Source: an uncultured Novosphingobium sp.
Lineage (GTDB): Bacteria > Pseudomonadota > Alphaproteobacteria > Sphingomonadales > Sphingomonadaceae
NCBI GenBank assembly: GCA_964413885.1
Contig: CAYPTU010000001.1
Span: 267,005-331,004 of the forward strand
Direction: 5' to 3'
Length of the DNA stretch: 64,000 nucleotides
Shown: positions 4,927 through 52,009 of the stretch, piece by piece
Numbering within the stretch: position 1 is the stretch's first letter
Layout: every line of letters begins with the position of its first letter
Notes under the pieces: generated by a model
The model's input: the letters and a program-made list of their open reading frames with translations, nothing else
The model's database searches: none
What the model was told of the DNA's origin: nothing
Position numbers and translations under genes: made by a program

Positions 4927-5406
4927 ATGAAAACCATTGCCGATTTTACGGCCAAGCTGCCCGGCGGCGGCGAGCTCAATCTCGCTGACAAGGCCGGCAA
5001 GGTGCTGCTGGTGGTCAACACCGCCAGCAAGTGCGGCTTCACCCCGCAGTACGAAGGGCTGGAAGCGCTCTACAAGAAATACGCCGATGACGGATTTGAG
5101 GTGATTGCCTTCCCCTGCAACCAGTTCGGCGCGCAGGAACCCGGCAATGCCGAGGAAATCGCCAACTTCTGCAGCTTGAAGTATGATGTGACCTTCCCGC
5201 TGATGGCCAAGATTGACGTCAATGGTGACAATGCCGACCCGCTTTATGACTGGCTCAAGAGCGAGGCGCCGGGCCTGATGGGCACCAAGTCGATCAAGTG
5301 GAACTTCACCAAGTTCCTGATCGACCGCGATGGCAAGGTGGTGCGCCGCTATGCGCCGACCGATAAGCCCGGTGCGCTGGAAAAGGACATCAAGGCGCTG
5401 CTTTGA
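4927..5406 (+). CDS. Glutathione peroxidase family protein
   Basis: VNTASKCGFTPQYEGL, AFPCNQFGAQEPG and WNFTKFL. Confidence 0.95.
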   Translation: MKTIADFTAKLPGGGELNLADKAGKVLLVVNTASKCGFTPQYEGLEALYKKYADDGFEVIAFPCNQFGAQEPGNAEEIANFCSLKYDVTFPLMAKIDVNGDNADPLYDWLKSEAPGLMGTKSIKWNFTKFLIDRDGKVVRRYAPTDKPGALEKDIKALL

Positions 5407-22287: not shown

Positions 22288-23546
22288 CCGATAGCGACGA
22301 AACCATCATCCGCATTGCCGCCAAGGGCGACGGCATTACCCCTTCCGGACGCTTCGCCTGGGGCGCCGCACCGGGCGATGTCTTGCGCGCCGACGGCGCG
22401 CTGGAATGGGGCCCGCACCACGTAACCCCGCCCTGCCGCCACTTCGCGCAGTGCGGCGGTTGCCAGCTTCAGCAGCTCGATGAAGAAAGCCTGGCAGACT
22501 TCGTCGCCGCGCGGGTCAGCAATGCGTCTTCCTCGCAAGAACTCGGCGCGGAACTGATCACCCCGCCGCATCTCTCGCCGCCAGCCAGCCGCCGCCGCGC
22601 TTCGCTGCGCGCGGAAAGCAGCCAGGGCCGGGTGGTGATCGGCTTCCGCGAAGCGCGCTCGCACCGGCTGGTCGAACTGGGCGAGTGCCCGGTGCTGCGG
22701 CCCGAAATCGTCGCAATTCTGCCGGACCTGCGCAAGCTGCTGATCAAGCTGGGGCAGGGGCAAGCGCCGAAAAAGGGCAAGGGCAAGCCGGGCAAACACG
22801 CCCATGTCAAGCTGGCCGCCGATATTGAGGTGACCGTTGCCGATCAGGGGCTCGACCTTGGCATCAAGGGTCTCAGCGCCGAGGGGTTGGCTCTTACCGA
22901 GCTGTTGCTCGATTTCGCGCGGGACCATGGCCTGGCGCGGCTTACGCTGGATGCGGGGTATGGTCCGGACACGGTCTGGGAGCCGGAACCTGTAACGGTT
23001 ACGCTGTCCGGCATTGCCGTACCACTTCCGCCCGGCGCTTTCCTGCAGGCGACGGCAGACGGCGAAGCGGCGCTGGTCGGGGCAGCAAAGGAATGGCTGG
23101 CTGGCAGCGCGACCGTGGTCGACCTGTTTTCTGGCCTAGGCACCTTTGCCTTCGCGCTGGCCGGGCCGGATACCAAGGTGCTGGCGGCCGAAGCAGACCG
23201 GGCGGCGCACCTGGCCTGCAAGGCGGCGGCCGGACGCACCGGACAGCCGGTTCACAGCCTCCACCGCGATCTGTTCCGCAATCCGCTGCAAGCCGATGAA
23301 CTCAATCGCTTTGCCGCCGTCGTGCTTGATCCGCCCCGCGCAGGTGCGCGCGAACAGGTCGAGCGGATCGCCGACAGCACCGTCAGCAAGGTGGTCTACA
23401 TCAGCTGCAATCCCGCCAGCTGGGCCAAGGATGCCCGAACGCTGGTCGAAGCGGGGTATGTGCTCAAGGAACTGCGCCCGGTCGGCCAGTTCCGCTGGTC
23501 AACGCACGTCGAACTGGCGAGCCTGTTCGTGCGAGAAGACGCGTGA
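22284..23546 (+). CDS. RNA m5U methyltransferase (RlmD/TrmA family)
   Basis: PPCRHFAQCGGCQLQ (Fe-S), FLQAT, VDLFSGLGTF, LDPPRAG and YISCNP. Confidence 0.9.
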   Translation: MTDSDETIIRIAAKGDGITPSGRFAWGAAPGDVLRADGALEWGPHHVTPPCRHFAQCGGCQLQQLDEESLADFVAARVSNASSSQELGAELITPPHLSPPASRRRASLRAESSQGRVVIGFREARSHRLVELGECPVLRPEIVAILPDLRKLLIKLGQGQAPKKGKGKPGKHAHVKLAADIEVTVADQGLDLGIKGLSAEGLALTELLLDFARDHGLARLTLDAGYGPDTVWEPEPVTVTLSGIAVPLPPGAFLQATADGEAALVGAAKEWLAGSATVVDLFSGLGTFAFALAGPDTKVLAAEADRAAHLACKAAAGRTGQPVHSLHRDLFRNPLQADELNRFAAVVLDPPRAGAREQVERIADSTVSKVVYISCNPASWAKDARTLVEAGYVLKELRPVGQFRWSTHVELASLFVREDA

Positions 23547-23860
23547 TGAAGTTCTTCGTGGTGACCATGACCCACCCGGACGGCCCTGGCTGGGGCGAGC
23601 ATGTGATGCCGCACGTTGAATATCTCAACGGGCTGATTGCCCAGGGCAAGCTGCGCGCCTCTGGCCCGGTGGTGGGCAGTTCGCTGCGCGCGGGCCTGTT
23701 GATTTTCACGGTGCAGGACAGGGCCGAACTGGATGCGCTGATTGCGGCGGATCCGTTCGCGATTGAAGGCCTGATCGAGGAACTGATCGTGACCGAATGG
23801 AACCCGCTGTTTGGTGCCTTCGCTGCCGAAGCCGCGCCTTACGCACCACCGGCCAACTAG
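23543..23860 (+). CDS. YciI family protein
   Basis: HVEYL...G.LRASGP and LIAADPF pattern. Confidence 0.75.
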   Translation: MMKFFVVTMTHPDGPGWGEHVMPHVEYLNGLIAQGKLRASGPVVGSSLRAGLLIFTVQDRAELDALIAADPFAIEGLIEELIVTEWNPLFGAFAAEAAPYAPPAN

Positions 23861-23870
23861 CGCGGCCTGC

Positions 23871-23906
23871 CAAAAGCAAATGGGGCCGGTGTCGCCACCA
23901 GCCCCA
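23871..23906 (-). terminator. Intrinsic terminator of a leftward (minus-strand) transcript
   Basis: Minus strand: TGGGGCTGGTG-GCGA-CACCGGCCCCA followed by TTTGCTTTT. No U-tract on the plus side. Confidence 0.8.
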
Positions 23907-24495
23907 CGCTACGCCTTCTGCGGTTCCAGGCGAGTTGGGCGATCGCCGTTCCGGGGTTTTCGTGAACAGTTGAGCCGCGGTGATGCGTTTCGGTCACCTC
24001 GCGTGCCATCGCACCGTGAGTGCGATTGCCTTTAGGGACTTGGCATCGTGATGCTCGTCGCATCGGGCCTGTTCCGCCGGGCCGAAGCCTGGCTTCACAC
24101 ACTGTCTCGCACATTCCGGCTGGCTCCAAAGAGCCGGCGCTCATCGCCCGGTATCGCTCCCGGCGTCCGGTCCCGTCAGGCGGTTGGTTCCGGCCCGAAA
24201 GCCTTTCCCATTCCGCCTGGCGGTTCCGAAGCTGCTTCCCGCCCGCCGTTCCGACTTTCCGTCTGCCTGACCGAAGCCACGCTTTCCATCTGCCTTCCCG
24301 ACTGCTGCGAAACAGCCTTCCTGACTGCGCGCCGCTCGCTGCATCTGCGGTTCGCGTGAGTGGCTCCGAAGAGCTTTTCCCGCGTGTTTTCCGACACTGC
24401 TGCGGGCATCGCTGCCAGCATCTGAAGGTTATGTTTTCCCCATTCCTTTCAGCGGTTTCCCACCGGAAGTTCAGGTTCGGTTTAACCTCCCGACA
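23871..24495 (-). ncRNA. Candidate large (~620 nt) structured noncoding RNA, family unrecognised
   Basis: No protein-like ORF. Multiple UUCG/UUUG tetraloop hairpins in minus orientation, about 19 GGAA motifs, an intrinsic terminator, and an upstream sigma70-like promoter. The 5' end is inferred from the promoter. Confidence 0.7.
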
Positions 24496-24500
24496 CCTGA

Positions 24501-24529
24501 AAGCTGCGCCCCAATCCTGAGTCGCACAA
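24501..24529 (-). promoter_or_regulatory. Putative sigma70 promoter with a GANTC (CcrM) site in the spacer
   Basis: Minus strand: TTGTGC (24529-24524), 17-nt spacer, CAGCTT (24506-24501). GAGTC at 24519-24523 lies within TGAGTCG. Confidence 0.55.
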
Positions 24530-24545
24530 GCTGGAAAATGCGGAG

Positions 24546-24578
24546 TTATCCACAGACGCCATGTTTGGCGGTGGATAA
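24546..24578. promoter_or_regulatory. Pair of inverted DnaA boxes
   Basis: Perfect TTATCCACA at 24546-24554. GGTGGATAA at 24570-24578 is TTATCCACC on the minus strand (1 mismatch). Confidence 0.7.
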
Positions 24579-24629
24579 CCCGGCCCTTGCAGTGGACAGA
24601 TTTGAGCCGCGCCTCGCCAGCGCGGATTT

Positions 24630-25844
<1,215 letters not shown>

Positions 25845-50755: not shown

Positions 50756-51748
50756 TCACATCACCGCCAGCTTCTGAGCCAGCTTGTAAGGTACCAAGTG
50801 CGTGTAACGCATCAGCATGCGTGGATCACGATGACCGCTGATCAGTGCAACCTCTGGCATACTCAAACCCATCTCAAAAAAGCGTGAAATGGCTTCGTGC
50901 CTCAGGTCATGGAAGTGCAGGTCTTTGATCCCTGTTTTGGCAATGATCCTGCGCCAACACATTTTCAATGCGTCTGAAGACACTTCAAAAACCAGACTGT
51001 TTCTGTGTGACTGCTTTTCCAACACGGCGATAGCGCCATTGGTAAGTGGAATAGTTCTGGCGTAACCATTCTTGGTTCGGGGTAAGTGGGCAGTGCGACG
51101 GTGCAAATCCACAAACCGCCATTCCAGTGAGAGAATTTCACCCCTACGCATTCCTGTTTCTAGAGCGAACAAAATCACGCTGATGACATCCACACGCCCC
51201 AACTCAGCCAATTCATCAATCAGCCTATCAAGCTCATGTTGAGAAACACGACGGTTGCGAGCATTGTTTAGTTTTGGCTTTCGGACTTTCGCTGCTGGAT
51301 TTTCCTCCAGCGCAAAGCCCCATTCATCAGCAGCGACATTTAGGGCGTGTTGAACCAGACCTAATTCACGACAGACCGTGCCAGCTTTAACGACCTTCAG
51401 TCGCTCATCTCGGTATCGGGCAAGATCGGTGACCGAAAGTTCTTCCAACGACAGGTCAGCCAAAGGCGCTCTCATCAGAGCTGCCAGCTGATAATGCTCA
51501 TTCAGCCAGCCGATCTTTTGAGAGCTTACCTCTTTTAGATAGCGGCTCAAAATCTCCCGTAATGTGACATTCCGTAAGTTCTGCGTTTGTCGCTTACGCT
51601 GACCAGTCTGTGTCGTGCGTTTCGCTTCCTCCTGATTAGCCCATGCGACCGCCTCAGCGTGTGAGGGGAAGGTTCGGCTGATTGCGGCGAAGCCTTTTCG
51701 GCGAATCTGAACGCAGTAACCGTGCTTTCTCTTGGCGATGGTTGCCAA
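50756..51748 (-). CDS. Tyrosine recombinase / phage integrase (Rci-like)
   Basis: Catalytic set intact: ETGMRRGE (R), TKNG (K), FHDLRH (HxxR), GH (H), RYTH (Y). Low GC; begins 186 nt downstream of tRNA-Val. Confidence 0.95.
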   Translation of the reverse strand: MATIAKRKHGYCVQIRRKGFAAISRTFPSHAEAVAWANQEEAKRTTQTGQRKRQTQNLRNVTLREILSRYLKEVSSQKIGWLNEHYQLAALMRAPLADLSLEELSVTDLARYRDERLKVVKAGTVCRELGLVQHALNVAADEWGFALEENPAAKVRKPKLNNARNRRVSQHELDRLIDELAELGRVDVISVILFALETGMRRGEILSLEWRFVDLHRRTAHLPRTKNGYARTIPLTNGAIAVLEKQSHRNSLVFEVSSDALKMCWRRIIAKTGIKDLHFHDLRHEAISRFFEMGLSMPEVALISGHRDPRMLMRYTHLVPYKLAQKLAVM

Positions 51749-51773
51749 CGCAAATGCCCGTGTTTTCGGTCAT

Positions 51774-51792
51774 TGTGATTTCGGTGTGATTT
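51774..51792. repeat. Short direct repeat upstream of the integrase (possible arm-type site)
   Basis: TGTGATTT at 51774-51781 and 51785-51792. Confidence 0.4.
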
Positions 51793-51899
51793 TGAGCATT
51801 TTTCACGGTGCGGAAACGCTGGGGAAGGGCGTGTCAGCAACCGTCTCGTCTGCTTATGGTCAAAGCAGAGTAACCGCTGATTTTCAGTGTGCTAGAAAC

Positions 51900-51925
51900 A
51901 AAAAACCCGCCGTTTCCGGCGGGTT
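51900..51925 (-). terminator. Intrinsic terminator after tRNA-Val
   Basis: Minus strand: AACCCGCCG-GAAA-CGGCGGGTT followed by a T-run. Confidence 0.85.
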
Positions 51926-51934
51926 CTTGGTGAA

Positions 51935-52009
51935 TGGTGGGCGTAGCAAGGATTGAACTTGCGACCCCTACGATGTCAACATAGTGCTCTACCACTGAGC
52001 TATACGCCC
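51935..52009 (-). tRNA. tRNA-Val(GAC)
   Basis: GGGCGTATAGCTCAGTGGTAGAGCACTATGTT-GAC-ATCGTAGGGGTCGCAAGTTCAATCCTTGCTACGCCCACCA; cloverleaf with encoded CCA. Confidence 0.97.

Follow-up and report, generated by a model that had tools for sequence, protein, structure and literature searches.

A conserved promoter with phased DnaA boxes and a lineage-limited GANTC site in front of an abundant, undescribed non-coding RNA downstream of argG in Sphingomonadales

The intergenic gap downstream of argG in a 64-kb stretch of Novosphingobium DNA (hereafter the window, meaning the whole stretch analysed) contains a genuine and strongly conserved promoter module, and the large RNA that this module precedes is real. 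The RNA is non-coding and abundant, and it constitutes a new family with a fixed place after argG in Sphingomonadales. Judged from the arrangement of its sites, control of the promoter by DnaA appears well supported and a further input from CcrM and GcrA, limited to the lineage of the window, is plausible. We consider it fairly probable that positions 24501-24599 constitute the regulatory region of a stand-alone RNA gene, controlled by DnaA and, in the subfamily to which the window belongs, also by CcrM/GcrA. The promoter would thereby join a known class of DnaA/GcrA promoters, while the RNA family that it drives is new.

The window originates from Novosphingobium and its argG is 98% identical to the argG of Novosphingobium sp. 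APW14. All the motifs discussed here lie within a 770-bp gap bordered on one side by the stop codon of argG (24630, minus strand) and on the other by a convergent YCII-family gene. On the minus strand, argG is followed in turn by a hairpin (24625-24607), the DnaA boxes, the promoter, some 620 nt of non-coding sequence and a strong intrinsic terminator (Table 1). The hairpin next to argG may be the argG terminator or an insulator: RNA depth is zero beyond it, which is why it may end argG transcription. Its T-run is found on the opposite strand only. argG is directly upstream of the RNA in 61 of the 62 metagenome loci with enough flanking sequence. The downstream neighbourhood is not conserved in this way, because the closest genome (L001) has no YCII-family gene at this point and the RNA there directly borders the methyltransferase gene. 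Between genera the gap is unalignable, the promoter module and a few blocks of the RNA excepted: BLAST of the gap against related loci gave an alignment over its length with the closest relative only, and a profile search (nhmmer) combined with motif anchoring was needed to align more distant relatives. An origin of replication was considered and ruled out: apart from a slight dip at 24-28 kb, the cumulative GC skew climbs throughout the window without a lasting change of sign, and the locus has three DnaA boxes only. By eye, no A+T-rich stretch was seen at the module.

Table 1. Features of the argG-linked locus (positions in the window).
Feature	Position	Strand	Basis
Structured non-coding RNA, ~620 nt, undescribed family	23875..24494	-	metatranscriptome contigs, nhmmer homologues, covariation, folding
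Intrinsic terminator: hairpin 23907-23880, then UUGCUUUUGG	23870..23907	-	sequence scan; hairpin conserved in all homologues
DnaA box C, perfect TTATCCACA, inverted relative to box B, centre ~-56	24546..24554	+	read in sequence
DnaA box B, TTATCCACC, one mismatch, centre ~-80, in the RNA's own direction	24570..24578	-	read in sequence
Distal weak DnaA-type box, CTGTCCACT, direct, centre ~-101	24591..24599	-	read in sequence; additional to the two boxes of the preliminary description
-35 hexamer TTGTGC	24524..24529	-	read in sequence; TTGnnn at the same register in 81/88 promoters
-10 hexamer CAGCTT	24501..24506	-	read in sequence; CAnnnT at the same register in 88/88 promoters
Predicted transcription start, G, 7 nt past the -10 hexamer	24494	-	inferred from hexamer spacing
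TGAGTCG (fits YGAKTCG) with GANTC, the predicted CcrM target, at 24519-24523	24518..24524	+	read in sequence; template strand
argG (argininosuccinate synthase)	24630..25844	-	ORF; directly upstream of the promoter module, same strand
YCII-family gene	23543-23860	+	convergent; between the RNA terminator and an rRNA/tRNA methyltransferase gene
G+C-rich hairpin just 3' of the argG stop codon	24607..24625		terminator-like site in sequence scan

A preliminary description of this DNA, made from the sequence, had proposed that the promoter fronts a large RNA, and metatranscriptomes bear this out: a minus-strand RNA running from about 24494 to 23875 exists. Expression was read from assembled metatranscriptome contigs and from contig depth. 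The RNA sequence was found in twenty metatranscriptome runs, and the samples that contain it come from rivers, lakes and the sea. In eight metatranscriptomes, contigs cover 23911-24486 at depths from hundreds to ~1.2x10^5 (overall 10^2 to 10^5), and in these same eight the depth is zero over 24490-24654 and at most ~70 over argG. Such steady-state abundance in field samples could be that of a stable housekeeping RNA or equally that of an RNA gated by the cell cycle, and is neutral as to whether expression is restricted to part of the cell cycle.

The RNA is structured and does not read as a messenger. It is poor in U (9-18%), rich in CUUCGG loops and in GGAA, and its folding z-score is -4.2 against shuffled controls. 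Several hairpins carry compensatory changes (one pair, for example, is UA 13 times, CG 8 times and GC 7 times); in the consensus structure, derived from sequence-based alignments, only some hairpins are supported and no global structure was obtained for the whole RNA. A protein-coding reading of the gap was rejected, as homologues differ in the length of their longest sense ORF (32 to 165 aa), substitutions fall 9/9/8 over the codon positions with no third-position bias, and 1-nt indels occur. The minus strand within 23875-24494 has no match in Rfam 15, be it at the gathering score or at E up to 10, and literature searches found no paper describing the argG-linked RNA. In being several hundred nt long, in having covarying conserved hairpins and in being very abundant, it resembles the OLE, GOLLD, ROOL and raiA RNAs. 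It differs from them in matching none of the Rfam 15 families, in its occurrence in Sphingomonadales at a fixed place after argG, and in its DnaA-box promoter. Its length varies from 430 to 766 nt across 87 distinct variants. Contigs were seen to join across 73-255 nt inside the RNA (e.g. 24066 to 24319 and 24071 to 24160), and internal direct repeats are present at 24066-24322 of the window; the RNA seems to be built of repeated modules whose number varies between relatives.

The promoters compared below were gathered without any use of promoter motifs, from argG synteny and from the pattern of the terminator hairpin. Synteny in reference genomes yielded 10 loci with the RNA (Novosphingobium, Croceicoccus, Pontixanthobacter, Altererythrobacter, Erythrobacter, Citromicrobium, Blastomonas and one MAG), and a metagenome scan with the terminator hairpin alone yielded 120 loci, with ~100 full-length homologues by nhmmer. 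Cultivable carriers include Novosphingobium sp. APW14, Citromicrobium bathyomarinum, Croceicoccus mobilis and Blastomonas marina. Promoter counts are given over 88 distinct promoter regions, corresponding to 98 loci before dereplication.

The pair of minus-strand hexamers TTGTGC-N17-CAGCTT, already pointed out in the preliminary description, is indeed found where it had been placed (24529-24524 and 24506-24501), with a spacer of 17 nt. The hexamers alone carry no weight, since the bare pattern TTG-N20-CAnnnT occurs 22 times in the window for 21.2 expected, that is, at chance frequency. A simple sigma-70 consensus scan gave no promoter match at this site, and CAGCTT agrees with TATAAT at A-11 and T-7 only. 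The promoter call rests on conservation (Table 1) and not on a consensus match. The composite TTGnnC-GANTC-N12-CAnnnT is unique in the window, being found once for 0.01 expected. The kept positions (TTG, A-11 and T-7 only) suggest a core promoter of the sigma-70 type that is intrinsically weak. Readings of the conserved cTTG...GGCGCA as a promoter of another type were compared by eye and rejected: sigma-54 (GG-N10-GC), EcfG (GGAAC...CGTT) and sigma-32 (CTTGAAA-N13/14-CCCCATnT) all match poorly and their key positions are not conserved.

The DnaA boxes are the most constant part of the module. The two of the preliminary description, a perfect box (24546-24554, plus strand) and an inverted one with a single mismatch (24578-24570, minus strand), are both there, and a weaker third one lies beyond them. 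Boxes with at most one mismatch show no overall enrichment in the 64-kb window (2 found for 3.8 expected), and the only two of them lie ~16 bp apart in this non-coding gap; given one box, we estimate the chance of a second that close at ~1e-3. Box C, in the form TT(A/T)TCCAC(T/A), is present in all 88 distinct promoters and in 98/98 loci before dereplication. It is separated from the -35 hexamer by 16 bp in 85 promoters and by 5 bp in the other 3 (L003, L011 and L158), in which exactly 11 bp have been lost between two CTTG direct repeats. As 11 bp is about one helical turn, the DnaA box would still face the same side of the helix after this loss. The gap between boxes B and C is 15 bp in 84/88 promoters; a further direct box precedes box B, by 10 bp in 72/88 and by 21 bp in the 9 promoters of the window's clade. 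In every one of the three classes of box, 84-88 boxes were scored and no fewer than 79 retain the TCCAC core. Over the 100 nt that precede the promoter, the density of DnaA boxes is 240 times that of the remainder of the loci. The boxes belong to the RNA and not to argG, for they co-occur with the former and not with the latter alone: DnaA boxes follow argG in 9/10 loci with the RNA versus 4/67 without it, and two or more boxes in 6/10 versus 0/67, which rules them out as an argG feature. The module thus combines near-consensus boxes beside a core promoter with a fixed register that is conserved together with the promoter. Both RNA subfamilies also share a conserved block of sequence, TGCGAyGAAnnGTTGA, on the upstream side of the distal DnaA box (box A), at a distance of ~5-25 nt in L010, L014, L182 and most homologues; it is absent from the window's clade and was matched to no known site.

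The GANTC site has a different distribution. The preliminary description had set it inside the spacer, at 24519-24523, where it is found, within TGAGTCG. The five bases of the GANTC follow the -35 hexamer immediately and make up the start of the spacer (-29 to -25). A GANTC is present in the spacer of 71/88 promoters, a very large excess given a background of ~1 site per 750 nt. In 58 of the 88 it is centred at -27/-28, the position seen in the window, and in all 58 it fits YGAKTCG on the template strand, so that the GcrA-type context proposed earlier holds wherever the site has this position. These 58 are the promoters of RNAs starting RUCGGRAGG, which is the window's type. In the sister subfamily, whose RNA starts GUCUUCGGGACAC, the GANTC is centred exactly at -20 (-22 to -18) in 13 promoters, mostly in a non-YGAKTCG context, and 15 of the 17 promoters without any upstream GANTC are of the sister type. 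The site is therefore not essential to the family; the expectation that all the motifs would be conserved in homologues was borne out for the DnaA boxes, kept in 88/88, and not for the GANTC, which the sister subfamily has at -20 or lacks. The last base of the -35 hexamer varies with the site: it is an A (TTGCCA, TTGTCA) in most promoters without the -27 site and a C in the carriers, where it forms the G of YGAKTCG. It looks as if -35 quality had been traded against the putative GcrA site. GANTC is 4.5-fold depleted in the window (54 found for 244 expected), and in related loci its observed/expected ratio is 0.40 and 0.31 for the genomes of the two subfamilies (2.5-3-fold depletion). Since both groups of genomes are depleted, the difference between the subfamilies does not come from a lack of CcrM-type selection. 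Ratios of 0.31-0.40 are among the lowest of the eight 5-mers of the same composition that were tested; CTNAG is similar.

We know of no DnaA or GcrA regulon mapped so far in Sphingomonadales, and Caulobacter is the reference for what follows. There, the GcrA motif is YGAKTCK/G, and the sites upstream of the start are centred at -20+/-1 (the main class) or -30+/-2, others being found at +2 to +30 (PMC4647560, PMC9976885). TGAGTCG ranks third for GcrA binding in Caulobacter (PMC4647560) and is the +12 site of mipZ. Taking 24494 as +1, the centre of the window's site is at -27, only at the edge of the -30 class and 7 bp from -20, which falls short of a full helical turn; this is a genuine reservation about a GcrA input. 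As in the upstream type of GcrA promoters (e.g. PcsM, with GANTC at -22 to -18), the GANTC lies within the -35/-10 spacer, and that of the sister subfamily has exactly the PcsM position; unlike in PcsM, the window's putative GcrA site is 7 bp further upstream. Across Alphaproteobacteria the core regulators gcrA and ccrM are well conserved while GcrA regulons are quickly rewired between relatives (PMC7987155), and a lineage-limited GANTC pattern fits that report.

A tentative alternative, less probable than our main reading, accepts the promoter and its DnaA control and supposes that something other than GcrA accounts for the conservation of the cGACTCr beside the -35, such as an extended -35 or spacer contact, the site of another regulator, or a direct effect of methylation on sigma region 4. 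A centre at -27 is off both the -20 and the -30 helical faces used by GcrA, the site is missing or moved in the sister subfamily, and the rapid rewiring just mentioned suits its being something else here. However, the 58 sites all fit YGAKTCG in one fixed orientation in genomes depleted of GANTC, and the position to which the sister group has shifted falls exactly on the main GcrA class. Both observations rather argue for GcrA as the reader of the site.

We thus favour the following mechanism. A sigma-70-type core (TTGTGC, 17 nt, CAGCTT) drives the ~620-nt RNA from a predicted start at about G24494, and the RNA ends at the conserved intrinsic terminator. DnaA would bind the three phased boxes centred near -56 (inverted), -80 and -101 and would control RNA polymerase from a fixed face of the helix. 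This control is most likely positive, given a weak core and boxes that are all situated beyond the -35 on its upstream side, an arrangement known from class I activation. A second input linked to replication would exist in the subfamily of the window alone: CcrM would methylate the GANTC that adjoins the -35, and GcrA, carried by sigma-70, would recognise the methylated site. Synthesis of the RNA would then follow both DnaA activity and the methylation state of the locus. Co-control by DnaA and GcrA has a precedent in Caulobacter, where DnaA activates the promoters of hdaA, gcrA, ftsZ and mipZ (PMC3193534), and where those of mipZ and ftsZ are also GcrA targets (PMC4647560). The window's promoter resembles the Caulobacter crescentus mipZ and ftsZ promoters in its sigma-70 type, where theirs have one or two DnaA boxes, and in a methylatable GANTC in a YGAKTCG-like context near the core. 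It differs from them in three respects: (i) its product is a large non-coding RNA and theirs a cell-division protein; (ii) it has three boxes, in a fixed array of inverted and direct boxes locked to the -35; and (iii) its GANTC abuts the -35 (-27), theirs being at -20 or downstream of the start.

The sign of the control could be the opposite. DnaA acts as a repressor as well as an activator, and on the three boxes it might repress the promoter, for instance if it covered the alpha-CTD/UP-element region or if its oligomers spread toward the -35; synthesis of the RNA would then coincide with low levels of active DnaA. Conserved phasing suits either sign, and an RNA that is very abundant in field samples, where many cells are slow-growing, would be in line with repression by DnaA. 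We nevertheless consider this unlikely: the boxes are placed entirely upstream of the -35 (-52 and beyond), the core (CAnnnT, TTGnnC) looks too weak to be strong unaided, and the documented DnaA-regulated promoters of Caulobacter are activated.

The triad might also be mainly a site at which DnaA is handled, by a reactivation of the DARS kind or a titration of the datA kind, the very active neighbouring promoter supplying merely negative supercoiling or an open region. This reading draws on topology. E. coli DARS1 reads TTATCCACT-N5-TGTGGATAA-N3-TGTGTATTA, and like DARS1 and DARS2 the argG-linked locus has three boxes, box C facing boxes B and A in a convergent arrangement, in an intergenic region beside a promoter; moreover, the triad is conserved in every member of the family. 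A 2025 paper reports that negative supercoiling enhances IHF binding at DARS2 (PMC11724364). In the spacers, however, the likeness ends: they are 15 and 1 bp in the argG-linked triad and 5 and 3 bp in DARS1, and membership of the DARS class fails on the 15-bp spacer, found in 84/88 promoters where DARS1 has 5 bp. The promoter register is also strict, box C being locked to the -35 at single-base resolution with the 11-bp variant as the only departure, which points to contact with RNA polymerase; and boxes are nearly absent after argG in loci that lack the RNA. A main role in DnaA handling is therefore improbable in our opinion, even if an action related to that of DARS is conceivable. We know of no DARS described in Alphaproteobacteria. 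It is tempting to go further and to speculate that the argG-linked module is a replication-control locus of Sphingomonadales, in which the triad would remodel or titrate DnaA, the hyper-active promoter would supply negative supercoiling and the RNA would feed back on DnaA or on initiation; we regard this as a long shot.

The mapped cDNA ends are in line with a start at this promoter. The preliminary description had expected a start near 24495, and cDNA ends were found 8 nt inside the predicted start 24494: several contigs run into Illumina adapter at 24484-24486, and it is this direct passage into adapter that identifies the positions as cDNA ends. Most homologues have a pyrimidine at -1 followed by a purine at +1, as read from the listing without a tally. 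Libraries of this kind can lose the extreme 5' end of an RNA during second-strand synthesis, and we explain the 8-nt gap in this way, 5' processing at +9 being a possible alternative. In L014 (Citromicrobium) the adapter junction is at 5339, which is +9 of the predicted start 5331, and the nucleotide is homologous to that of the window. Junctions at +9 on a homologous nucleotide, seen in two genera and in different library types, may reflect a library artefact or a processed 5' end. A -10 element suited to a start at 24486 was sought and rejected, the candidates (AGGTGT, and AGACAT in L014) lacking the conserved A-11. That the motifs are chance matches and the RNA 5' end is processed from a transcript starting elsewhere would accommodate the chance frequency of the bare hexamers and the 8-nt offset but is very improbable, given a depth of zero across 24490-24654 even where the RNA reaches ~10^5, the single-base conservation of the whole module between genera whose intergenic sequences are otherwise unalignable, and a composite motif found nowhere else in the window.

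To our knowledge, promoters that combine DnaA with GcrA/CcrM are known almost solely from protein genes of Caulobacter. If our reading is correct, the same logic appears in another order, Sphingomonadales, in front of an RNA that ranks, ribosomal transcripts apart, with the most abundant ones seen in river, lake and sea metatranscriptomes. The three-box array, conserved to the base pair and tolerating a change of 11 bp only, should be a clean model of the contact between DnaA and RNA polymerase. As for the GANTC, which one lineage retains and another has either shifted to -20 or lost, it amounts to a natural experiment on GcrA rewiring. Should the RNA respond to DnaA, it would offer a handle on the replication and growth status of environmental Sphingomonadales as well as a first clue to the function of this large RNA; and were the speculative replication-control reading true, the locus would give the DnaA cycle an arm that contains an RNA, for which no counterpart has been described.

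Elsewhere in the window, a phage-type integrase gene (50756-51748, minus strand) adjoins a tRNA-Val gene (51935-52009). The region 50756-52009 is the only low-G+C stretch of the window (0.51 versus ~0.65) and is probably an integrated element.
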